From a virus (Duplodnaviria > Caudoviricetes): a DNA stretch of 57,889 nt. The notes beneath the pieces are model-generated. The model saw nothing but the letters and a program-made list of their open reading frames with translations. It did no database searches and was not told the DNA's origin. Where the stretch lies: positions 1 to 57,889 of the IMG/VR virus record IMGVR_UViG_3300021131_000007; one strand, given 5' to 3'. This document shows positions 2-11,927 of the stretch, piece by piece (the first letter of the stretch is position 1; every line of letters starts with the position of its first letter). The translations under genes and the position numbers were made by a program.

Positions 2-1555
2 GCTACAGTATCACAATCAAATTCAACAGGGTCAGCTACAAACTCACATGTTTCTTCTGTAACAGTAGATACATATGGTCGTGTAACTGGTGTAACAACT
101 TCACCAATTAATGTAGCAACATCTTCTCAACAAGGTGTGGCAACATTTAATACAGCATCGTTTGCTGTAACAAATGGAGATGTTACTATCAAGGCTGCTG
201 GAGTTTCTAACACTCAGCTTGCAAACTCAAGCGTAACTGTTGGTACAACAGCAATAGCACTTGGAGCTTCTTCAACCACACTTGCTGGACTTACATCTGT
301 AACTTCAACAGGGTTTACTGGTGCTTTTACAGGTAACGTAACTGGTAATGCTGATACTGCAACCAAGCTTGCAACAGCACGTAATATTAACGGTGTAGCA
401 TTTGATGGTTCTGCAGCAATTACTGTAAAAGCATCTACCACAAACGCCCTTACAATTGGAACGGGACTTTCAGGATCATCATTTGATGGTTCAGGTGCAG
501 TAACAATTGCTATAGATTCAACAGTAGCTACATTAACTGGAACACAGACTCTTACAAATAAAACTCTTACATCTCCAATAATTGGAACAATTGTTAATAC
601 AGGAACACTTACACTTCCAACATCAACAGATACACTTATTGGTAAGGCTACAACAGATACCCTTACAAACAAGACATTTGATACAGCTGGAACAGGTAAC
701 GTATTTAAGATTGCTGGAACTCAAATTTCAGCTAACACAGGTACAGGATCAAACGTTCTTGCTACCAGTCCATCTGTAACTGGTCTTTCAACAGATACTC
801 TTACAACAACTGGTAACGTAACAGTTGGTGGTAACTTGACAGTTAATGGTACAACAACCACAATTAACTCAACAACTCTTAATACAACAGAGCAGGTTCT
901 TGTTATCTCTAATGCAGCCACCCCAACAGATGTAACCGCAAACGGTGCGGGAATTACAATTAAGGGTACTACAGACAAGACAATCAAGTGGTACTCATCA
1001 ACAGGTGCTGTAACATTCTCTGAAAACGTAGATCTTGCTTCAGGTAAGACATACAAGATTAATGGAACAGATGTCCTAACATCAACAGCAGTTCTTGGTG
1101 TAACTGTAACAAATATTGCCACAATAACTGGATCTCAAACACTTACAAATAAGACTTTGACTACCCCAGTATTAAATGGTCCATCAGTTAACTCTGCTGG
1201 TATTACATTCTCAGATTCAACAGTACAAACAGTTGCTGGTGTACCATCTATAACATCAATAGATAATACAACTTTTGCAACAGGTACCGTAAGCCTTGCA
1301 ACTGGTCTTAAAGATTATATGGTTAAGGTTGGAGCAAGCGTAACCATAACATTACAACAGGATTCAGCAGCAACATATCCAGTAGGATCATCTATTGATT
1401 TCTATGCAAATGGAACTGGAGCAGCTTTTGCAGCAGGAACTGGAGTAACAATAATCAATACCCCAGGATTAAAGTTTAGAGCAGTTGGATCAGTTGCAAC
1501 TGCAATGAAGGTAGCAGCAAATACATGGTTGGTCTTCGGAGACCTTTCAGCGTAA
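2..1555 (+). CDS. tail fibre / long virion fibre protein, 5'-truncated
   Basis: Frame is open from base 2 (ATVSQSNSTG..VTVDTYGRVT..). Thr/Gly/Ser-rich, with fibre motifs VTVDTYGRVT, GNADTATKLATARNINGVAFDG and repeated TQTLTNKTLT; ends WLVFGDLSA. Confidence 0.8.
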   Translation, partial: ATVSQSNSTGSATNSHVSSVTVDTYGRVTGVTTSPINVATSSQQGVATFNTASFAVTNGDVTIKAAGVSNTQLANSSVTVGTTAIALGASSTTLAGLTSVTSTGFTGAFTGNVTGNADTATKLATARNINGVAFDGSAAITVKASTTNALTIGTGLSGSSFDGSGAVTIAIDSTVATLTGTQTLTNKTLTSPIIGTIVNTGTLTLPTSTDTLIGKATTDTLTNKTFDTAGTGNVFKIAGTQISANTGTGSNVLATSPSVTGLSTDTLTTTGNVTVGGNLTVNGTTTTINSTTLNTTEQVLVISNAATPTDVTANGAGITIKGTTDKTIKWYSSTGAVTFSENVDLASGKTYKINGTDVLTSTAVLGVTVTNIATITGSQTLTNKTLTTPVLNGPSVNSAGITFSDSTVQTVAGVPSITSIDNTTFATGTVSLATGLKDYMVKVGASVTITLQQDSAATYPVGSSIDFYANGTGAAFAAGTGVTIINTPGLKFRAVGSVATAMKVAANTWLVFGDLSA

Positions 1556-1577
1556 TTAAAATAAGGAGAAAATATAA

Positions 1578-2420
1578 ATGTCAAAACAAGCAGGTAGATA
1601 CTCAGAATCGGCAAATGATTTCTTGCAACCACTAGCTGTAACTTCACTTACAGCAACAGATGTAGGAACAAACAGACCGTACTCAGCAACAGCAAATACA
1701 ACATCAGCAGCTTCTGCAGCGGGAACAGGTGGAGCAGTAAATCTTTCTTGGACATTGCCTGCAAATTCTCCAGCAGCGACTTCTTATACTATTACGAGTA
1801 CTCCTGCAACGTACACCGTTAGTACTGGTTCCTCTACTCCTTCTTATACATTTGAAGGACTTGCTTCTAATACTTCTTATACATTTACAGTAGTTGCAAC
1901 TAATGCAGTAGGTAGCTCAGATGCAACTACTTCTTCATCAGTAACTGTAACAACAGTTCCAAATGCTCCACAAAGTCCATCTGCTACAGCTCAAGTTTTA
2001 TATGATACTATTGATTGGACAGATGGACAAAACGGCGGTCAAGCAATAACCAGTTACACCATAACATCAAGTGCAAATGGTTCTCAAACTGGAATTACTT
2101 CACATCCTTATAATTTTACAGAATCTGCAGGGGCACAAGATTATTATGTTGTATATGCACTAAATGCTAATGGAACTTCAGCAGCATCAGCACAAACAGG
2201 AACAGTAACAACACAAGCCCCATTCTTTCCTCCATTCTTTCCACCAGGGTTCTTTTCTCCACCAGGGTTCTTTGCCCCTCCAGGGTTTTTTCACCCACCA
2301 GGGTTCTTTGCTCCTCCAGGGTTTTTTCACCCACCAGGGTTCTTTTCGCCACCAAGATTTGGTACATCTTCAATTAGATTTAAAGAAGATGTTGTCGAGA
2401 TTATAAATATTAGTATATAA
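1578..2420 (+). CDS. fibronectin type III-domain virion protein with C-terminal (PPGFFx)n repeat and S74 N-terminal stub
   Basis: RBS AAGGAG; FN3 motifs LSWTLP, YTFEGLASNTSYTFTVVATNAVG, YYVVYALNANG; tail PPGFF repeats then GTSSIRFKE. Confidence 0.8.
   Translation: MSKQAGRYSESANDFLQPLAVTSLTATDVGTNRPYSATANTTSAASAAGTGGAVNLSWTLPANSPAATSYTITSTPATYTVSTGSSTPSYTFEGLASNTSYTFTVVATNAVGSSDATTSSSVTVTTVPNAPQSPSATAQVLYDTIDWTDGQNGGQAITSYTITSSANGSQTGITSHPYNFTESAGAQDYYVVYALNANGTSAASAQTGTVTTQAPFFPPFFPPGFFSPPGFFAPPGFFHPPGFFAPPGFFHPPGFFSPPRFGTSSIRFKEDVVEIINISI
2218..2360 (+). repeat. in-frame 18-bp tandem repeat encoding PPGFF(S/A/H)
   Basis: CC(A/T)CCAGGGTT(C/T)TTTnnn units; six PPGFF copies preceded by PFFPPFF. 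Confidence 0.95.
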
Positions 2421-2430
2421 TATAATTTAA

Positions 2431-2724
2431 ATGATAAATATTAATTTTAAAGAAGTTATAAAAAAACTTCGTCCAGTGACATGGATTTATAAAAACGATG
2501 AATCTAGAAAAAGATATATTGGATACATAGCTGAAGAATTATTTGAAGAAGAAGCATTTAAATATGTTGTTTCTTTAGATGAGGACGGGATTCCAAATGG
2601 AATTAGCTATGAGTCATTATCTATATATGCTTTAGAAGGTTTAAAAACAGCATATGCTGAAATAGAAAATTTAAGTAATAGGATTTCTTATCTAGAATCC
2701 AAATTGGATGAAAAGAGCAATTAA
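2431..2724 (+). CDS. stand-alone C-terminal part of a Peptidase_S74 intramolecular chaperone domain
   Basis: IKKLRPVTWIY, YIGYIAEEL, GISYESL and a terminal coiled coil (EIENLSNRISYLESKL); lacks the Ser-x4-Lys catalytic start. Confidence 0.85.
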   Translation: MININFKEVIKKLRPVTWIYKNDESRKRYIGYIAEELFEEEAFKYVVSLDEDGIPNGISYESLSIYALEGLKTAYAEIENLSNRISYLESKLDEKSN

Positions 2725-3690
2725 ATTAAAATATTAATTTCCGTATCAAATTATTGCGATCCAGAATACGAAATGACAATAAGGTCTTTATGGGATAACG
2801 CTGGAATGAAAGAAAATCTTATATTTTCTTTAGTTTCAGAAGATTTTAAAGAATATGATTTTTCTTATATTCCAAGTAATCAATTATATTACAAACATTT
2901 TCCCCTAACAGAACATAGTCTTGAATATAGGGGCGGGGTATGCTGGTCTAGAAATCTTGCGACACAAGTTCCAGTAGATTATGATTATTATGTACAATTT
3001 GATTCTCATACATTAGCAGTAAAAGACTGGGATATTATGGCTTTGTCAGCTTATGAAAATTTAAAACATGTTTGGGATAAAATTATTATTTCTGGACACC
3101 CAGCAGATTATGAATATCTTCCAGATGGAACTATTAATTTTTATCAATTCCCACTTACTCCAACCTATGTAGAAAATTTAGAAGGCCTTGTTCCTGGTTA
3201 TACTTTTCCAAAATATAATTCAGTTCCACTTAAAGAATATAAAGAGTCTGCTTGGATAACTGGTTGTTATATATTTGCTCCAAAAGCTTGGGTAGATGAA
3301 ATAGGTATAGAAAAGCAATGGTCATTTAACGTTGAAGAATTTATGATGACTATAAAAAGTTTTAATTTTGGATGGAAAGTTTTAAGCTATGGACAAAGAC
3401 ACGTATTCCATCATTCCTCACATACACTTCCAGATGGATCTATAACTAGAAATAGATTTAGACCATGGGCAGATAGCAGGGCTAATGCTTACTGGCAACA
3501 TGTTTATAGAGAAACTGATAAATTATCATACTTTATGTCAGAACCTATAGAAGGAATGACTTGGATGGGATTGTATAACTTTTTTGATGTTAATAAATTA
3601 GATAGAAAATATTTAGAATATATTCCTGATTACCATCAATATGGAAAATCAATAAAAAGACAAAATCTTGGGATGCCCCCAAGAAATTAA
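2725..3690 (+). CDS. Gnt1-like (GT60, Skp1 hydroxyproline GlcNAc-transferase-like) glycosyltransferase; start extended upstream of the ORF-track ATG 2773
   Basis: In-frame upstream KILISVSNYCDPEY resembles the family N-terminus IFVSIASYRDPE; also GGVCWSR, YYVQFDSHT..WD, FNVEE. Confidence 0.75.
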   Translation: MKILISVSNYCDPEYEMTIRSLWDNAGMKENLIFSLVSEDFKEYDFSYIPSNQLYYKHFPLTEHSLEYRGGVCWSRNLATQVPVDYDYYVQFDSHTLAVKDWDIMALSAYENLKHVWDKIIISGHPADYEYLPDGTINFYQFPLTPTYVENLEGLVPGYTFPKYNSVPLKEYKESAWITGCYIFAPKAWVDEIGIEKQWSFNVEEFMMTIKSFNFGWKVLSYGQRHVFHHSSHTLPDGSITRNRFRPWADSRANAYWQHVYRETDKLSYFMSEPIEGMTWMGLYNFFDVNKLDRKYLEYIPDYHQYGKSIKRQNLGMPPRN

Positions 3691-3727
3691 ACATGATATA
3701 CTAACATACATAGTAGATAGGAAAACT

Positions 3728-4441
3728 ATGAACAACTATGACAGTTCATACCCATTACAACCCAACTGGTCAGCACAAGAACAGCTATTTAACGGAGTTT
3801 GGGTTTATAGAAATATATTCAAAAAAGATATAAATATTATAGATAGATTAAATCAAATTGGTCAGCAAGCAAATGTTGATAACGATTCTAGATATGAATG
3901 GACTTTTGGTTTTGTTGGATATGCAGATAAAAGACCAGAATATAGAGACTGTGAAGATATAAAAATTGGTCAAATAGATTATCCAAGAAATCAAACAGAA
4001 CAATATGTTGGCGATCTTTGGAAAGACTTAAGGTCAATACAAAATCCAGCAGTGCAAGATTATTGCAGCAGATATTCATTAAGAATGAATTATTGGGAAG
4101 TAATGAATTGTATTAAATACGGACCAGGACAACACTTTCAAGAACACGCTGATCATGGATTTTCTTATAGTGCTACAGTTTCTTTAGTTGGTTATCCTAA
4201 TGATGATTATACTGGAGGAGGACTATATTTTCCTAAATTAGGTTTAGATATAAAGCCTACAGCAGGAGATTTATATATATTTCCATCAACCTATCTATTT
4301 TCGCATGTAGCTAAACCAGTTGAATCTGGAACAAAATATTCTATAGTTACAATGCTAGATTACAATGATCATGCTCATAATCAAGAATTTATGCAAATGC
4401 GAGAAAAATGGGTTAGAAATGAACAGCATAAAAGCTTTTAA
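3728..4441 (+). CDS. 2OG-Fe(II) dioxygenase, prolyl 4-hydroxylase-like (#1)
   Basis: HAD, YPNDDYTGGGLYFP, KPTAGDLYIFPS, distal H, terminal K (GTKYS). Confidence 0.85.
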   Translation: MNNYDSSYPLQPNWSAQEQLFNGVWVYRNIFKKDINIIDRLNQIGQQANVDNDSRYEWTFGFVGYADKRPEYRDCEDIKIGQIDYPRNQTEQYVGDLWKDLRSIQNPAVQDYCSRYSLRMNYWEVMNCIKYGPGQHFQEHADHGFSYSATVSLVGYPNDDYTGGGLYFPKLGLDIKPTAGDLYIFPSTYLFSHVAKPVESGTKYSIVTMLDYNDHAHNQEFMQMREKWVRNEQHKSF

Positions 4442-5117
4442 AGTAAGAGGAGAAGGATACGGCATTCTTTCTCAACTTTCAGTTAAAAGAGACTGGATGG
4501 ATAATACTTGGGAAGCACATGCTTATAAATGTTTTCCAGTAAGTTTAACTAATCAATTAGGATGGGGAATTTCATTTCCTGAAGATATTACTTTTATCTG
4601 GGATGGCATTTCAGATTCTTCTCCAGATCATGTTAAGATTCTTAAAGGGGAAAAGTATGCTTATTCTGGACGGGCTAACGCTACAATAAGTTTTAATACA
4701 GGAATTAGGTTTGTTACAAATTCTGACATTTCATTACTGCAAATGCCAGTTCCAAACTACCCAAGAGATGGGGTTTCTCCTTTTACTACTTTAATAAGTA
4801 CATCTTTTTTTCAAGGAGAGATTCCAGTAGCTTGGCAAATAACTAAACCAAATGTTGAAATTACAGTAAAAGCCAATACTCCCATTATATCTATTTTGCC
4901 AATTAATTTAAGTGAATTACAAAATTCAGAAGTTGTTTTTGAAGATATTTTAACAATGAAACATTTTATAGAAAATCCAGAAGAGTACGGTAACCTTGTT
5001 TATGAAATTAATAGAACTGGAAAATGGACTAATTTTTATAGAGATGCCGTTGATCATAAAGGAAATAAACTTGGAGAGCATCAAGTAAAAACAATTAAAT
5101 TGCACGTTAAAGAGTAA
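4419..5117 (+). CDS. DUF6065-like protein
   Basis: KRDWMD..HAYKCFPVSLTNQLGW motif, typical of this family, which is often next to phage 2OG oxygenases. Confidence 0.6.
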   Translation: MNSIKAFKVRGEGYGILSQLSVKRDWMDNTWEAHAYKCFPVSLTNQLGWGISFPEDITFIWDGISDSSPDHVKILKGEKYAYSGRANATISFNTGIRFVTNSDISLLQMPVPNYPRDGVSPFTTLISTSFFQGEIPVAWQITKPNVEITVKANTPIISILPINLSELQNSEVVFEDILTMKHFIENPEEYGNLVYEINRTGKWTNFYRDAVDHKGNKLGEHQVKTIKLHVKE

Positions 5118-5176
5118 ATCTTGTTTTTTTTTATAAATATGGTAAAATTAATATATAGTCGAAAGTAGATAACCTA

Positions 5177-5911
5177 ATGGTTGAAAATAACTGGAATAAA
5201 AACGAAATACCGCAATCAATAACTCCTTCTGGATTTTTTGGCAATTCTTCTGATAATATTGTTGAATTAGAAAATTTTATAACAGAATACGAGCAAAATA
5301 AACTTATGACATTTGCATTAAATAATAAAATTTGGGACGAGACAGAAACACACGTAGATAAAGACGGACTAGTGTTATATGATGCCAATATTTGGAAAGA
5401 TAGAGTTTGTACATACAATTCTTTAATGGCTTCCGACCCATCAATCCTAGAATTAATTTATGATATGATTCGCAGATTAAAAATCGAAGTAGACAAATTT
5501 TTTAATGTAGATGTTAAAGAAACTGGACCAGCTATAGTTAGATGGCCTATAGGTTCAAGACAAGAACCACATGCAGATAAAGAATTTTGGGTGGGTGAAG
5601 AAATGGGAAGACCAAATGATTTTCCTTGGTATGATATAGCTGGATTGTTTTATTTTAATGATGATTACGAAGGAGGGGAACTATACTTTCCCCAACACGG
5701 TATAGAGTTTAAGCCAAAAGCAAGGGCAGCTTATTTTTTTCCAGGAGATAGATATTATGCTCATGGAGTAAGACCTATAAAATCTGGTAATAGATTTACA
5801 TCTCCATTTTTTTGGACAATTAAAAAACATACTGGAGAAAAACAACCTCCAGTAGGATATATTGGTGGATTTGAAAATCCAGAATATAAAAAACTATTTG
5901 AGGGTGAATAA
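5177..5911 (+). CDS. 2OG-Fe(II) dioxygenase, P4H-like (#2)
   Basis: HAD, YFNDDYEGGELYFP, HGV, GNRF. Confidence 0.88.
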   Translation: MVENNWNKNEIPQSITPSGFFGNSSDNIVELENFITEYEQNKLMTFALNNKIWDETETHVDKDGLVLYDANIWKDRVCTYNSLMASDPSILELIYDMIRRLKIEVDKFFNVDVKETGPAIVRWPIGSRQEPHADKEFWVGEEMGRPNDFPWYDIAGLFYFNDDYEGGELYFPQHGIEFKPKARAAYFFPGDRYYAHGVRPIKSGNRFTSPFFWTIKKHTGEKQPPVGYIGGFENPEYKKLFEGE

Positions 5912-5912
5912 G

Positions 5913-6764
5913 ATGAGTCAAATAAATTTAAGAACTGATATTAATAATCTGGATTGGATAGAGCTTTATCCTAATGTAATTGTTTATCAAAACATGTTAA
6001 ATAATCCAGAAGAAGCTTATAAAATTATGATGAATTCAGAGCAATCTGCTGAAGGAAAATATTTTTTTAAAAAATGGGATCTTTGGGCTAGTTTTGGAAC
6101 CTACACACAAGCAAAATTTGGAGAAGATCTAAATGATGCACAATTAGGTTCAGAGTTTGATCAAGAAAAAAATCTTTTTGATGAGATAGCGATAGCTTAT
6201 GATAAAGCTATTTCTCATTATTTTCAACATACTGGAATAGATATTCCAGAAAAAGCAAGATATAGTGGTCAATCTTGGTGTAAATATTTTAATAAAATTG
6301 ATACTTTAAAGAATAAAATGACAATGCAATATCACACAGATTATATTGTTTCTGAAAGAGATATGCCAGGTGAAAAGTTTCATACAACTTGTACTTTTTA
6401 TATAAATGATAATTACAATGGTGGGAATCTTGAGTTTTATATTAATGGTACTATAGTAAATCATAAACCAAAAGCTGGAGACCTTGTAATATTCCCATCA
6501 ACACAACCATATTTTCATGGAGTAAAAACCATTCCAGATGGTAATAAGTTTTTTATTAGAAACTTTGTAATGTCTGATTATGAAGGATCAAAAGAATGGT
6601 TAGATAATCAAAAAAAGTTTGGTGCCTATAGATGGGCAAAAAAAGAATTTGAAAGAATAGATTACGAAAATCCAAGAAATATGATGTATCTGCAAAATGG
6701 AAAAATTATTTCTTATGATGATCTCATGAAAATCAATGAAAAAGAAGGTCAAAATGAAGTATGA
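5913..6764 (+). CDS. 2OG-Fe(II) dioxygenase, P4H-like (#3)
   Basis: HTD, YINDNYNGGNLEF, KPKAGDLVIFPS, HGV, GNKFFIR. Confidence 0.88.
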   Translation: MSQINLRTDINNLDWIELYPNVIVYQNMLNNPEEAYKIMMNSEQSAEGKYFFKKWDLWASFGTYTQAKFGEDLNDAQLGSEFDQEKNLFDEIAIAYDKAISHYFQHTGIDIPEKARYSGQSWCKYFNKIDTLKNKMTMQYHTDYIVSERDMPGEKFHTTCTFYINDNYNGGNLEFYINGTIVNHKPKAGDLVIFPSTQPYFHGVKTIPDGNKFFIRNFVMSDYEGSKEWLDNQKKFGAYRWAKKEFERIDYENPRNMMYLQNGKIISYDDLMKINEKEGQNEV

Positions 6765-7506
6765 TGCAGTATCTGAAGACATTCATATTTATAAAAATTT
6801 TTTAACAGAAGATGAATCTAAAAAAACTTTAGATGTAATTTTAGAGTATGCTGAAAGATTTCCAGATTACTGGAAAGGGATTTCTTTTTATGAATCATAT
6901 TCAGCTGGGTACCCTGAAGTGGGAGACCCCATTTTTAAAAAATATAGCTTGCCAGATGATTGGTTTGAAATACTTATAGATAGATTTAAAGAAGCAGCCT
7001 CTATAGTTGCTGGAGTAGATAAAGACAAAATGTCAAGAATAAGTTTTCATGTACAAAGATGGCTTCCAGGGGCATATGCTCCATTGCATTCAGATAATTC
7101 GAGTAACGAAGGCGTTATGGGTGCATTTACTAGAAGTAGGTATGCTGGATTTATGTATTTAAATGATGATTTTGAAGGCGGTTTGTTAAAATTTCAAGCA
7201 GAGCATGGAAAAAATAATATAGAATTAAAACCAGAAGCAGGAATGTTTGCGATCTTTCATGGTGGACATAAAAATATGCATGAAGTTTCTATTGTTAAAC
7301 ATGGAACTAGATACACTTTAGGTTCATTTTGGGATGATAGAGAAGAATCAGATTACCCCCAAGAATTACGTGATGAATGGGCTAAAGAACTTGCTGAAGT
7401 TAGAGCTATGCAAAAAGAACAACAAAAAGATTGGCAAGAAGTAAGGAAAAAGGGTAAAAGACTTTCTCCTTATGGAGAAGAATATAAAGCTGAGGAAGTA
7501 GAATAA
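6754..7506 (+). CDS. 2OG-Fe(II) dioxygenase, P4H-like (#4)
   Basis: HSD, YLNDDFEGGLLKF, HEV, GTRY. Confidence 0.88.
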   Translation: MKYDAVSEDIHIYKNFLTEDESKKTLDVILEYAERFPDYWKGISFYESYSAGYPEVGDPIFKKYSLPDDWFEILIDRFKEAASIVAGVDKDKMSRISFHVQRWLPGAYAPLHSDNSSNEGVMGAFTRSRYAGFMYLNDDFEGGLLKFQAEHGKNNIELKPEAGMFAIFHGGHKNMHEVSIVKHGTRYTLGSFWDDREESDYPQELRDEWAKELAEVRAMQKEQQKDWQEVRKKGKRLSPYGEEYKAEEVE

Positions 7507-8174
7507 TGCAGTCATCTAATGCTAATATTATAAATGAAAAAAAACAATATATAATGTTTAATCTTATTATGTTACATCCAAATATTTGGTACTGGGAAAA
7601 TGTAATAAGTTCTCCAAAAGAATTAGTTGATTTTATCAATGAAGTGGATTCTGACAAAAGATCTTATGATGCAATATCTTCTTGGAGCCCATGGACCGCA
7701 AGCGATGACAAAAATCTTGTTTATGGATCCGTCAAAACAATTAACAATCAATATAATAAAATTAATACTGGAGACAATAGATTAGATCAAAAAACATTAT
7801 ATATAATAAATAGTTTAAAAATGGCTATTGAAATGTGCTCTGAAAGATATATTTTAGGACACAAATTAGATGTTAATAAATATAATTTAGATCAAAGAAT
7901 GCTTTCTATTAAAAGATGGAATGAGGGACAAAGCATGGGTCCTCATTTTGATGGGCAAGACGGACATTCTGATTTAGGTTTTTCTTTAGTAACTTACCTA
8001 AATGATGACTACGAAGGTGGAGAAATACATTTTAAAGATCATAACATTACAGTTAAACCAAAAGCTGGAAGTTTAATAATGTTCCCATCTCAGATGCCGT
8101 TTGTACATGAAGTATTACCAATAACAAAAGGTACCAGATATATGATGCCAACTTCTGTTTTAACCTTGCCGTAA
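7506..8174 (+). CDS. 2OG-Fe(II) dioxygenase, P4H-like (#5)
   Basis: HFD, YLNDDYEGGEIHF, KPKAGSLIMFPS, HEV, GTRY. Confidence 0.88.
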   Translation: MQSSNANIINEKKQYIMFNLIMLHPNIWYWENVISSPKELVDFINEVDSDKRSYDAISSWSPWTASDDKNLVYGSVKTINNQYNKINTGDNRLDQKTLYIINSLKMAIEMCSERYILGHKLDVNKYNLDQRMLSIKRWNEGQSMGPHFDGQDGHSDLGFSLVTYLNDDYEGGEIHFKDHNITVKPKAGSLIMFPSQMPFVHEVLPITKGTRYMMPTSVLTLP

Positions 8175-8211
8175 TTAATGGTATAATCTATTTAGAATTG
8201 AGGAAAATATT

Positions 8212-9066
8212 ATGTTTTTTGATAGACCAGATTGTATAACTCTTTCTAGCTATATAGATGCTTATGGAACCCCTAGTGGAGTTTTTGTTTTAAAAAACGT
8301 AATTGATCCAGAATTAATTAATAAAATAGAACAAGATCTAAAATTAATAGAAGAAAAATCTTTAAAGAATACAAGTGGATTGATAAACTGGTATGTTGAT
8401 AAAACAGTTGATCCTTTTGTAGATACTATGTACATATGGGAAAAGATGAGTGAAATACTTTCCCCTACACATGTCCTACACCCACAAGCAGGTTTACTGA
8501 AAGTAAAACCAGGTGATGATGGTATGTTTATTCACGCAGACAGCCCAGGTAAAGGACAATGCCATCTTCTTTCACAAAGAGATACATGGTCAACATGTTG
8601 CCTTTTGGATTATGGGGTAGTTACATATTTAGGAGATTGGGAAGGTGGAGAGGTCTTTTATCCAAATATTAATCCAGATGGAACAATAAAAGATCATCTT
8701 AAAGACGGTCCAGAATGCTTAGAATATAAACCTGAAAGAGGAGACATTATTATTCATTCCGCATTTGATCCTTATTCACATGGAGTTAGAGAAGTAACAT
8801 CTGGAATTAGATATGCTTTTTCAAATTTTTCTCTTAAAGCAATTGATAATCCTGGAACATTTTATAATTATGGAACTTCAGAATATTTTGAACAAATAGG
8901 TAAAAACGTACAGGAAAAATCAGTAACTGATGAACAATTAAAAAATTGGCTACAGCCTTTAAAGATAAACCCGCAATTTACCGAAGAAGCAATATTAAAA
9001 ATGCAACAATCTGGACTTGAAGGTGAAGATCTAGCTAAAACATTCTTTGCAGACATGAAAGAATAA
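8212..9066 (+). CDS. 2OG-Fe(II) dioxygenase, P4H-like (#6)
   Basis: HAD, YLGDWEGGEVFYP, HGV, GIRY. Confidence 0.85.
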   Translation: MFFDRPDCITLSSYIDAYGTPSGVFVLKNVIDPELINKIEQDLKLIEEKSLKNTSGLINWYVDKTVDPFVDTMYIWEKMSEILSPTHVLHPQAGLLKVKPGDDGMFIHADSPGKGQCHLLSQRDTWSTCCLLDYGVVTYLGDWEGGEVFYPNINPDGTIKDHLKDGPECLEYKPERGDIIIHSAFDPYSHGVREVTSGIRYAFSNFSLKAIDNPGTFYNYGTSEYFEQIGKNVQEKSVTDEQLKNWLQPLKINPQFTEEAILKMQQSGLEGEDLAKTFFADMKE

Positions 9067-9070
9067 ACAA

Positions 9071-9670
9071 TTGAAATCAATAGAAGAAGTAGCAATTGGC
9101 ATATATAAAATAGATAATTTTATATCAAAAGATGCTTGTGTTTTTTTAAAAAAATATTTAAATCAAGATTTATATGAAAGTCCAAGATATAATATTTATG
9201 GATCTCTTGGGTCGGAATATCCAAAATATTTAGAAATGATAGGTAATTATAAAGAAGACCCTGATTATAATATTGCAATTGATTTGTTTAATTCTATAAT
9301 TTTGTCTTTTAGTAGTCCAGTTTCTTTTATGTTTAAAGAAGATCATATATTAAAACAAACTTACTATAGCGTCATGAAAAATGATAGCGAAAATGAAATT
9401 CATTTAGATAATTATTATTATGACGAATCTGGAGCCCTACAAATAAAAGATGGCTACTCACAAGATAAATCGGCAATGTTATATTTAACCGATGACTACG
9501 AAGGTGGAGAGTTATATTTTCCAAATCAAGATTTTTCAATTAAGCCAAAAGCAGGAACTATGATTTTCTTTGAAGGGGATCACAATAAACCTCATGGAGT
9601 AAAAAAAGTAATTTCTGGGGAAAGATGTAATATAATTACTTTTTTTGAACCTAGGAGTTTAAATGGATAA
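9071..9670 (+). CDS. 2OG-Fe(II) dioxygenase, P4H-like (#7)
   Basis: HLD, YLTDDYEGGELYFP, HGV, GERC; TTG start. Confidence 0.88.
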   Translation: MKSIEEVAIGIYKIDNFISKDACVFLKKYLNQDLYESPRYNIYGSLGSEYPKYLEMIGNYKEDPDYNIAIDLFNSIILSFSSPVSFMFKEDHILKQTYYSVMKNDSENEIHLDNYYYDESGALQIKDGYSQDKSAMLYLTDDYEGGELYFPNQDFSIKPKAGTMIFFEGDHNKPHGVKKVISGERCNIITFFEPRSLNG

Positions 9671-10023: not shown

Positions 10024-10353
10024 ATGAGAGTAACTCCAGTTGAAGAAGTAAATTATGGCACCTATTTATGGGAAATGCCTAACGGTAGCCTTGTTGCTGA
10101 CGAAGAAGGTAATTATATGTGCATTTACGCCATCAAAGGAGATATTAATAAAATTAAAGAATTAAAAGACTTTGCAAAATCTCATGGAATTGAAGAAGGA
10201 AAGCCTATTTGGTTTTCTGGACACCGACCAGTCTCCCAAGAAGAATACGAAAATCAAAAGCAAAGAATGGAATGGGGTCTTGTTGCAGATGAATGGGATA
10301 TCCCAGCATTAAAAGAAGATCTACAACAAAAGAAAAAGATGGGAATCATATGA
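10024..10353 (+). CDS. hypothetical protein upstream of the portal
   Basis: Clean 109-aa ORF coupled to the portal start by ATGA overlap. Confidence 0.7.
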   Translation: MRVTPVEEVNYGTYLWEMPNGSLVADEEGNYMCIYAIKGDINKIKELKDFAKSHGIEEGKPIWFSGHRPVSQEEYENQKQRMEWGLVADEWDIPALKEDLQQKKKMGII

Positions 10354-11927
10354 TAAACCATACAGCTGATGTAGCAGATGATGATTTTGAAAAAAGCACA
10401 ACTATCGAAATTGAAGGTGCTGCTTTAGGCACCTCCCCAAGACAATTACAAGAATCAGATTTTGATGACCCATTTTTAGGAAAAGCTGATGAATTATTAA
10501 AGCTTGAAGGTCTTAATCAAAATTTTAAAAGAAATGCATCACGTAAGTTACAAAAAGCTTATACGGGTTTAGATGATGCAAAGTCTAAAAAACTTGATCC
10601 ACTTGATTTAACTGGATACTCTTTATTTCAAATCGTACAACCCCCATACAATGTGATGTACCTTGCACAGCTATACGACTTATCCCCATACCATCATGCT
10701 GCCGTAGATTCTAAAGTCGCAAATGTAGTGGGATTGGGATATAAATTTGAAGAGAACCAAAAAACTTTGGATAAATTGGAAGATGTTTCTGAAGACGAAA
10801 CAAAACTAGAAAAAGTTCGTCGTAAAATATCTCGTGCAAAGGTAATGATGCGGGATAAGATCGAAAGTCTGAATTCAGATGATACTTTTGAAGAAATGAT
10901 GAAAAAGGTTTATAGGGATCTAGAAGTTACTGGAAATGGCTATCTTGAAGTAGGTAGAACATCTTCTGGAACAATTGGTTACATTGGTCATATACCAGCC
11001 ATTACAATGCGTATAAGACGCCATAGAGACGGTTTTGTACAAGTTGTATACAATCGCTATACCTATTTTAGAAACTTTGGCGATACGACCACACAGGACC
11101 AAATAGGTACAGATCCTCGTCCTAACGAAGTCATTCATTTTAAGAAGTATTCTCCAACAAATACTTATTATGGAATTCCAGATATTATGTCAGCTTCTAA
11201 AGCAGTTGCTGGAGATGAATTTGCAGCTCGTTATAACTTAGATTATTTTGAAAATAAAGCAGTTCCAAGATATATTATCGTATCAAAGGGTGCACGTCTA
11301 AATGCAGATTCCGAAAGAAAACTTTTGGAATTTTTTCAAATTGGTTTAAAGGGTCGTAATCACAGAACACTTTATATCCCTCTTCCATCTGATGGTGAAA
11401 ACTCACGTATTGATTTTGAAATGAAGCCAGTAGAGGCGGGAATTCAAGATTCATCCTTCCAAAATTACTCTGTAGAAAATAGAGACCGTATATTAATTGC
11501 ACATAGAACCCCATTATCTAAAATTGGACATGGAGTTCCTAGTCCATTAGATGATAAAATTTATAAAGAACAGGTTTCCAGACCTATGCAAGATGTTCTT
11601 GAAATGCAAGTTAATAAAATTGTTAAAGAATTTACAGACATGTTTAATTTTAGATTTGAAGAACTTACACTTACAGATGAGCTATCTCAAGCTCAAATTG
11701 ATCAAATTTATCTAACAACTCAGGTTGTAAAGCCTAATGAAGTGAGAATGCGTATGGGATTAAATCCTATTGATTCTGGAGAAGAAGTCTTTGATCCCGC
11801 AGCAAAAGCTGCTGAAATTCAGGCACAAACTATGCAGTCTAGAGCCAGAGATAAAACCAGAAATGCTGCCCCAGAAGAAGCAGTAAGTGGTCGGGCTCGA
11901 AAAGGGGAAGGTAGAAAAGTACAATAA
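10350..11927 (+). CDS. portal protein
   Basis: TGNGYLEV, NEVIHFK, YYGIP, YFENKAVP, PNEVRMRMGLNP; precedes protease and capsid genes. Confidence 0.9.
   Translation: MINHTADVADDDFEKSTTIEIEGAALGTSPRQLQESDFDDPFLGKADELLKLEGLNQNFKRNASRKLQKAYTGLDDAKSKKLDPLDLTGYSLFQIVQPPYNVMYLAQLYDLSPYHHAAVDSKVANVVGLGYKFEENQKTLDKLEDVSEDETKLEKVRRKISRAKVMMRDKIESLNSDDTFEEMMKKVYRDLEVTGNGYLEVGRTSSGTIGYIGHIPAITMRIRRHRDGFVQVVYNRYTYFRNFGDTTTQDQIGTDPRPNEVIHFKKYSPTNTYYGIPDIMSASKAVAGDEFAARYNLDYFENKAVPRYIIVSKGARLNADSERKLLEFFQIGLKGRNHRTLYIPLPSDGENSRIDFEMKPVEAGIQDSSFQNYSVENRDRILIAHRTPLSKIGHGVPSPLDDKIYKEQVSRPMQDVLEMQVNKIVKEFTDMFNFRFEELTLTDELSQAQIDQIYLTTQVVKPNEVRMRMGLNPIDSGEEVFDPAAKAAEIQAQTMQSRARDKTRNAAPEEAVSGRARKGEGRKVQ

Follow-up and report, generated by a model that had tools for sequence, protein, structure and literature searches.

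A putative two-piece S74 chaperone divided between a phage fibre gene and its downstream neighbour

The subject of this study is an IMG/VR viral record, a metagenome-assembled contig of 57,889 nucleotides that was analysed over its full length (hereafter, the window), in which two adjacent open reading frames (ORFs), ORF1 and ORF2, encode the two parts of a single Peptidase S74 domain. The S74 domain is a textbook intramolecular chaperone (IMC) that is made in cis, used a single time and then cut off. In the window, the short strand that carries both catalytic residues forms the end of a fibre-like client protein, and the body of the domain is encoded separately, immediately downstream.

The locus and its S74 domain

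The client gene, ORF1 in the ORF list (1578..2420; + strand, as are all features of the locus described in this section), encodes a fibre-like protein of 280 residues that consists of FN3 domains, a Pro/Phe-rich repeat and an S74 stub. The protein matches Pfam fn3 in two stretches (E 4.4e-10) and the PHROG family annotated as tail fibre J-like (E 7e-6). The repeat, found by repeat search and translation and denoted D1, comprises seven tandem copies of an 18-nucleotide unit, spaced at 18 nucleotides (2223..2384), that encode (PPGFFx)n; we propose that it forms a trimerising stalk directly before the cleavage site. The C-terminus of ORF1 reads ..PPRFGT-SSIRFKEDVVEIINISI and is followed by the stop codon TAA (2418-2420). 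The stub, or 'cable' (residues 264-280, SSIRFKEDVVEIINISI; 2367..2417), was delineated by conservation and by alignment to a hidden Markov model (HMM) of fused S74 domains, and its 17 residues comprise Ser264-x4-Lys269, within the motif SSIRFK, and 11 more. Cleavage is predicted between Thr263 (codon 2364-2366) and Ser264 (2367-2369), because the phage T5 protein pb1 is cut at Thr1263|Ser1264 and MyRF at P586|S587 (PMC4690869, PMC8326128). The codon of Lys269 is 2382-2384.

The ORF1 stop codon and a 10-nucleotide AT-rich spacer (together 2418..2430) separate the stub from ORF2 (2431..2724), which encodes the S74 body, a protein of 97 residues that starts with MININFKEVIKKLRPV and contains helix a1, the beta strands of the 'cutter' and a C-terminal helix. 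ORF2 has no Ser-Lys dyad and carries an invariant aromatic pair, W18/Y20, within the cutter strands. The two reading frames differ (1578 mod 3 = 0, 2431 mod 3 = 1), and that of ORF2 is closed by a TAA at 2428-2430, immediately 5' of its ATG. Chaperone and client are, accordingly, not parts of one polypeptide: two ORFs, a stop codon, the 10-nucleotide spacer and a change of frame lie between them. A direct repeat, ATAAATATTA, occurs at 2403-2412 and at 2434-2443, 31 nucleotides apart, and encodes I-N-I in both ORFs. In addition, a 17-nucleotide inverted repeat, 82% complementary (2417-2433 / 2718-2734), brackets ORF2 almost exactly, from the ORF1 stop and ORF2 start to the ORF2 stop; it may reflect chance in AT-rich DNA.

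Both pieces were compared with profiles of the S74 family. ORF2 scores 24.7 bits against the Peptidase_S74 profile (PF13884), above the curated cut-off of 22, and covers only positions 15-51 of the 58 in the profile; in a six-frame search of the 57.9-kb record, PF13884 yields 26.4 bits over positions 10-51, the sole S74 match in the record. We also built our own HMM from 113 fused S74 domains that were retrieved in a representative search and of which none belongs to the split clade described below. Residues 8-91 of ORF2 align with positions 20-102 of this model (84.3 bits, E 1.5e-25), and residues 263-275 of ORF1 align with positions 3-15, the third best of 442 segments, at 2.8 bits, which, over so short a stretch, is not significant by itself. 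One S74 domain is therefore tiled by the two ORFs between them. The catalytic Ser and Lys are found at the start of the domain, five residues apart, as is typical of the family, and are located on ORF1: Ser264/Lys269 has the same i, i+5 spacing as S911/K916 of the K1F endosialidase (endoNF), S587/K592 of MyRF and S1264/K1269 of T5 pb1 (PMC8326128, PMC4690869). The Pfam match and the HMM tiling thus bear out a sequence-only reading of this DNA in which the end of ORF1 and ORF2 were taken to form one S74 domain; its further observations, that SSIRFK on the client has the spacing of the Ser-x4-Lys dyad and that the frames differ, with the TAA at 2428-2430 blocking a simple frameshift, agree with the Ser264/Lys269 pair and with the sequence.

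Upstream of ORF1 lies another large, fibre-like ORF (2-1555), open at the window start, with repeated TLTNKTL-type motifs. It shows only weak PHROG matches, to virion structural proteins; no Pfam family was matched, and no Ser-x4-Lys or S74 motif was found at its C-terminus.

Conservation and origin of the split

A search of viral contigs with an alignment of ORF2 homologues returned 39 loci: 22 with the same split, one cut by the contig end and 16 in which a long fibre protein ends in an ordinary, fused S74 domain. The alignment was needed as the query, given that ORF2 alone confirmed no relative in the viral contigs. With the window included, the split is represented in 23 viral contigs that contain 18 distinct stub-plus-body pairs, with body identity down to 42-44%, and the arrangement of stub and body is retained in 23/23 loci in which both sides are visible. 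The details between the two parts vary: the spacers span 5-27 nucleotides, the frame of the body is offset by 0 in 13 loci, by 1 in eight and by 2 in two, and a G-rich Shine-Dalgarno run is present in 10/18 distinct spacers. The protein collection contains 14 other stand-alone homologues of ORF2, of 56-98 residues (among them, one with a GTG start and one 56-residue fragment), 13 of which share the same start point. The clients in the split clade (L083-L088, L099) range from 167 to 381 residues and vary in the number of N-terminal domains; the stub and the body are constant.

Stub and body co-occur whichever of the two is taken as the starting point. Wherever the gene upstream of a body can be seen, in 22 body loci, it carries the stub. 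From the client side, we classified 81 loci, namely, the best 80 of 166 ORF1 relatives in viral contigs and the window's own copy (L001): the body adjoins 4/4 stub-bearing ORF1 homologues and 0/77 others, 7 of which run off the contig before the C-terminus.

The window being a metagenome-assembled viral contig, for which a search with positions 1900-3100 listed no sequencing run, the split could in principle stem from an error of assembly or sequencing, or from a fused gene that has recently become a pseudogene, in this contig alone. The same architecture, however, is shared by 22 other contigs with 17 other distinct sequences, with diverged spacers and purifying selection on both parts, and the 14 other stand-alone homologues, of 56-98 residues, argue in the same direction. 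The occurrence of the split in the 22 other contigs effectively refutes this explanation, and we accord it virtually no probability. Judged by these sequence comparisons, the split is real, neither an assembly error nor a recent pseudogene.

A different possibility is that the two ORFs are joined in expression, by programmed frameshifting, stop-codon readthrough or bypassing between the ATAAATATTA copies, and yield an ordinary fused S74 fibre. Indeed, a hop from the ATT at 2409-2411 to the ATT at 2440-2442 would produce a seamless canonical domain, and at 13/23 loci both ORFs are in the same frame. The relatives, however, show offsets of 0, 1 and 2, several of the in-frame spacers contain two or three stop codons, and, in the window, the ORF2 frame is closed immediately before the ATG. 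Moreover, a G-rich ribosome-binding run precedes the conserved start in 10/18 distinct spacers, and matched take-off and landing sequences are not kept in the relatives inspected. The variable spacers and offsets, together with dedicated ribosome-binding sites, therefore argue against frameshifting, readthrough and bypassing alike, and we consider a joined product hardly credible. Taken together, the presence of the split in 23 contigs, the stand-alone homologues and the 4/4 co-occurrence make assembly error, recent pseudogenisation and recoding very unlikely.

Selection appears to act on both parts. In the stub, S1, S2 and K6 are invariant in 18/18 distinct versions, position 4 is always R or K, and F5, I9 and V12 hardly ever change; variation is free at positions 3, 7 and 11. 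The codons of the invariant residues vary synonymously (TCT/TCA, TCA/TCT/TCC and AAA/AAG). The pooled Nei-Gojobori ratio of nonsynonymous to synonymous substitution rates (dN/dS) is 0.22 over 15 codons of the stub and 0.20 over 32 codons of the body core, a crude estimate in which 153 non-independent pairs are pooled and synonymous sites are nearly saturated. At the level of sequence, then, stub and body both evolve under what we read as purifying selection.

Strict co-occurrence also bears on the possibility that the stub and the body are uncoupled, with ORF2 serving another fibre and the retention of the stub having some other, unrelated cause. The long fibre-like ORF just upstream (2..1555) would be a candidate for that other client. 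Its end, however, contains no Ser-x4-Lys, PF13884 is matched only once in the 57.9-kb record, and the body and the stub are found strictly together, so that we regard uncoupling as quite improbable.

The sequence-only reading had suggested looking in related genomes for conservation of the split and for continuous ORFs. The 22 further viral contigs keep the split, with differing spacers and frame offsets, and the searches revealed a single fused member of the clade, P0017, against the background of 13/14 stand-alone homologues that start alike. P0017 is a metagenomic protein of 340 residues encoded by one continuous ORF, found on 2 contigs only, that comprises an N-terminal domain, a Pro/Phe/Ser repeat and an S74 domain (Pfam match at residues 242-291, profile positions 1-51). 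It shares the architecture of the window pair, and its motif, SSIRYK, closely resembles SSIRFK of the window stub; the junction duplication is missing. When aligned with P0017, stub positions 12-17 and ORF2 residues 1-6 occupy the same domain positions, in agreement with the 10-nucleotide direct repeat whose copies are 31 nucleotides apart, suggesting that the fission involved a short duplication of the junction. The stub tails past position 14 differ in length and sequence among relatives, and I4 and F6, near the N-terminus of the body, are invariant; therefore, the body's copy of the duplicated junction is probably the functional one, to judge from this pattern of variation.

In a tree of 76 S74 bodies, 31 split sequences and P0017 form one clade, with a value of 99 in the Shimodaira-Hasegawa-like approximate likelihood ratio test (SH-aLRT). 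P0017 is placed inside the split clade with weak support, and a topology with just one split clade survives the approximately unbiased (AU) test (p 0.145), so that one fission, two fissions and re-fusion are all compatible with the tree. Scans of the viral and metagenome context of P0017 gave N-terminal or low-complexity matches only, and a word search found no further fused relative.

Short S74 proteins are also found outside the split clade. Eight of them start at or near helix a1. Seven are metagenomic proteins of 84-101 residues (P0037, P0062, P0064, P0075, P0081, P0091 and P0153) in which the Ser-Lys part is missing and which may represent either separate fission events or gene calls cut short. 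Locus searches with P0064 and P0075 returned no loci, and no second split family was established from the three proteins followed up (P0054, P0064 and P0075). P0054 was considered as a second split and rejected: its close relatives (75-79% identity) are fused, which makes an artefact of gene calling, or else a split of very recent date, the probable explanation.

A DNA search with window positions 1500-3700 produced no match in the phage collection, and a tblastn search with ORF2 against 50,697 phage records (E <= 1e-3) returned eight records and no close homologue in a cultured phage. A word-based search for longer proteins containing ORF2 found none, which is weak evidence given the word-based method; the full HMMER scan did find fused relatives. 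A scan of genome contigs for a host gave only three distant fused matches, in metagenome-assembled genomes.

Body fold, assembly model and fibre context

The AlphaFold2 model of ORF2, built with 16 homologues, has a mean pLDDT (predicted local distance difference test) of 86.8 and, as assigned by DSSP, consists of a helix (6-12) and two strands (16-18 and 29-31), followed by short helices, a hairpin (47-58) and, at the end, a long helix (60-96). This is the a1-b1-b2-a3-beta hairpin-long a4 succession of the S74 fold, with only the canonical strands present. The long C-terminal helix (residues 60-96; 2608..2718, + strand) is expected, on the basis of the model, to form the core of a trimeric coiled coil; in MyRF, trimerisation is driven by the corresponding helix, a4 (PMC8326128). 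S74 chaperones fill the first four places among the PDB matches of the model, namely, MyRF (7dc3_B, residues 597-705, Z 7.3), K1F endoNF (3gw6_D, 921-1062, Z 7.2), GA-1 gp12 (3gud_B, 630-739, Z 5.6) and T5 pb1 (4uw8_A, 1274-1396, Z 5.4); these Z values are middling by the scale of the tool, and the next entry has Z 2.4.

The structural matches define the position of the break. The ORF2 model begins at residue 597 of MyRF, 921 of endoNF and 1274 of T5 pb1, in each case 10 residues past the catalytic serine (Ser587, Ser911 and Ser1264, respectively), and ORF2 therefore contains neither the Ser nor the Lys. The break coincides exactly with the boundary that separates the cable, or cleavage strand, on which both catalytic residues lie, from a1, the opening helix of the body. 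In the precleavage trimer of MyRF, the cable that includes the cleavage site threads the beta 'donut' of the neighbouring subunit (PMC8326128), and in T5, the stretch 1265-1276, which precedes the first hairpin, is wound around the other chains (PMC4690869). The break therefore sits where the domain already works between chains. In our alignment, the invariant W18/Y20 of ORF2 correspond to Y615/Y617 of MyRF, and the double mutation of these tyrosines abolishes correct cleavage (PMC8326128). Prediction of a 3:3 complex between ORF2 and a C-terminal, 50-residue segment of ORF1, each supplied as an alignment, gave values of 0.16, 0.57 and 0.23 in its runs, with the mark at 0.32, an outcome that counts neither for nor against the complex.

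Given that the stub is under purifying selection and that the cleavage strand is held by a neighbour in solved structures (PMC8326128), we infer that the domain reassembles in trans and that a 17-residue peptide is removed from the client, leaving ..PPRFGT. In the proposed scheme, an ancestral C-terminal S74 IMC of a phage fibre protein would have been split into two adjacent genes, such that ORF1 would retain the cable as a 17-residue C-terminal tag and ORF2 would supply the body. Three ORF2 chains would trimerise via their C-terminal helices (60-96), and each body would wrap its beta cutter, including W18/Y20, around the tag of one ORF1 chain. The three client C-termini would thereby be put in register, nucleating the folding of the Pro/Phe-rich stalk. 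Lys269 would then activate Ser264, the Thr263-Ser264 bond would be cut, and the mature fibre, ending in ..PPRFGT, would be freed, together with a body trimer bearing three 17-residue peptides. That the split domain reassembles in trans, the trimer bringing the client into register and the dyad cutting before Ser264, seems to us somewhat probable. For the claim of a natural two-piece self-cleaving chaperone, with the dyad in the client's 17-residue tag and a separate 97-residue scaffold that both activates the dyad and trimerises the client, we see the chances as evenly balanced. As the scaffold would not be consumed with the client, ORF2 could in principle turn over and, if this is the case, a single-use intramolecular chaperone would have become a reusable, enzyme-like assembly factor.

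The main rival explanation, which we hold to be possible and rather unlikely, is that ORF2 acts only between molecules, as a chaperone or transient cap that docks on the stub as on a binding tag, aids trimerisation and leaves without proteolysis. Precedents are available, in that IMC-fold chaperones are known as separate proteins, with a gene located downstream of that for the fibre, and fibre function depends on them (PMC10579305, PMC7289586), and non-proteolytic capping has already been proposed for such separately encoded IMC-like chaperones of Alteromonas phages. Conservation of the stub would be equally expected of a binding tag. The residues that never change, however, are exactly those of the catalytic Ser/Lys pair, canonically spaced, along with [RK]4 (18/18), whereas positions 3, 7 and 11 are free, and the binding of the Alteromonas chaperones was modelled via a beta-sheet that true IMCs lack and not via the cable (PMC10579305).

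Several points weigh against reassembly with cleavage, in addition to the shortness of the stub match and the crudeness of the dN/dS estimates. Binding, trimerisation and cleavage are deduced from conservation, and the trimeric state of the Pro/Phe repeat is a proposal. An Arg four positions N-terminal to the cut, which may correspond to the folding sensor represented by Arg1250 in T5 and R897 in endoNF, is present in only 11/18 relatives. The spacer of the window itself has no Shine-Dalgarno run. Finally, the conservation of the stub motif could serve binding rather than catalysis.

The clients belong to a family of fibres with FN3 domains and Pro/Phe repeats in which the C-terminal modules are interchangeable. 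Among the 81 classified loci, 40 encode complete ORFs (29 distinct) with a Hint/intein-like C-terminal domain, 4 end in the S74 stub, 10 in Cys-rich tails, 6 in Gly_rich_2 and 14 in short tails, and 7 run off the contig; examples of ORF1 relatives are L069:3992-5359, L005:3304-4791 and L003:2282-3577. Pfam Intein_splicing was matched below the cut-off (E 2e-5 to 7e-3) in 4/5 of the Hint-classed proteins scanned, and the fifth, L048, matched fn3 only. The Hint-type junction is often F|C or Y|S, and many of these proteins end in ..HNK. The presence of a Hint domain at the same position in 40/81 loci fits a need for a self-removing C-terminal module, and the swapping of Hint-type and S74 modules suggests that these Pro/Phe-rich fibres generally need a C-terminal part that can be removed tracelessly. 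Two unrelated self-cleaving modules at one position is an unusual situation.

The window represents a tailed phage, in which genes for the portal, a protease, capsid-type proteins and terminase were identified. The portal (10293-11927) is about 51-54% identical to the portals of Streptomyces phages with genomes of 120-134 kb (such as Coruscant, Mandalore and Muntaha); the window is AT-rich. Directly 3' of ORF1 and ORF2, the region 2773-9670 encodes a GlcNAc (N-acetylglucosamine) transferase (PF11397, E 1e-10, the Pfam family to which the Skp1 hydroxyproline GlcNAc-transferase belongs), six paralogous 2OG-FeII_Oxy_3 proteins (3668-4441, 5177-5911, 5862-6764, 6736-7506, 7506-8174 and 9071-9670) and a DUF6065 protein (4365-5117). 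The Pro-rich repeat might be prolyl-hydroxylated and glycosylated, which would make the protein a putative extensin- or collagen-like phage fibre. Judged by eye, the ORF located 3' of the ORF1 homologue looks similar at several relatives.

Comparison with known systems

In sequence family and fold, ORF2 belongs with the Peptidase S74 (ICA) chaperones of K1F endosialidase, T5 pb1, GA-1 gp12 and MyRF (PF13884; PDB 3GW6, 4UW8, 3GUD and 7DC3). The pair shares with them a Ser-x4-Lys motif located at the proper distance ahead of helix a1, two conserved aromatic residues on strand b1, the C-terminal helix for a trimeric coiled coil and the location of the domain at the C-terminal end of a fibre-like protein. 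In contrast to all these chaperones, the domain is encoded by two genes, and the cable with both catalytic residues remains on the client. About 80 of the roughly 100 domain residues are made separately, some 6 junction residues are present in both pieces, and only about 17 residues would be cut from the client, compared to approximately 130-150.

The closest parallels in gene organization are gp9 of Alteromonas phage A5 and gp27 of V22, separately encoded IMC-like tail-fibre chaperones that are thought to cap the fibre at its C-terminus as trimers (PMC10579305, PMC7289586). Like these proteins, ORF2 is a small IMC-fold protein whose gene lies directly downstream of a fibre gene. Their contact with the fibre was modelled through three extra beta-strands that pair with the fibre head and are absent from true IMCs (PMC10579305); the ORF2 model shows canonical strands only. 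The text sections covered describe neither a catalytic stub nor proteolysis for them (PMC10579305, PMC7289586). For V22 gp27, no sequence homology was identified in the 2020 paper (PMC7289586), whereas ORF2 is a recognisable member of PF13884; none of the eight phage records retrieved with ORF2 in the tblastn search described above comes from an Alteromonas phage. In Polinton-like viruses, S74 domains are described as 'fused or adjacent' to fibre modules (PMC12220804). By analogy only, naturally split inteins are comparable, being self-processing domains on two polypeptides that need to associate before the chemistry can proceed; they differ in that the fold and chemistry are unrelated and that, in the S74 pair, there is no ligation and both catalytic residues would reside on one fragment.

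In the full-text searches and the passages covered, we found no report of a split inside the S74 domain that leaves the dyad on the client. What is known, then, is that IMC-fold chaperones can be separately encoded, and what appears to be new is the split within the domain, with the dyad on the client. For annotation, a protein of 90-100 residues that matches S74 and whose gene follows that of a fibre may be complete rather than fragmentary. The system is small, so that two genes and two point mutants suffice to probe the role of the body in catalysis, and, if the proposed scheme is correct, it would provide a compact pair consisting of a short tag and a small helper that trimerises the tagged protein and then removes the tag. 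More generally, a conserved split at the junction between the cable and helix a1 would show that the S74 domain can assemble from two chains and that the catalytic strand can come from a polypeptide other than the one that supplies the cutter, thereby offering a link between the chaperones that act in cis and the separately encoded IMC-like chaperones of other phages.

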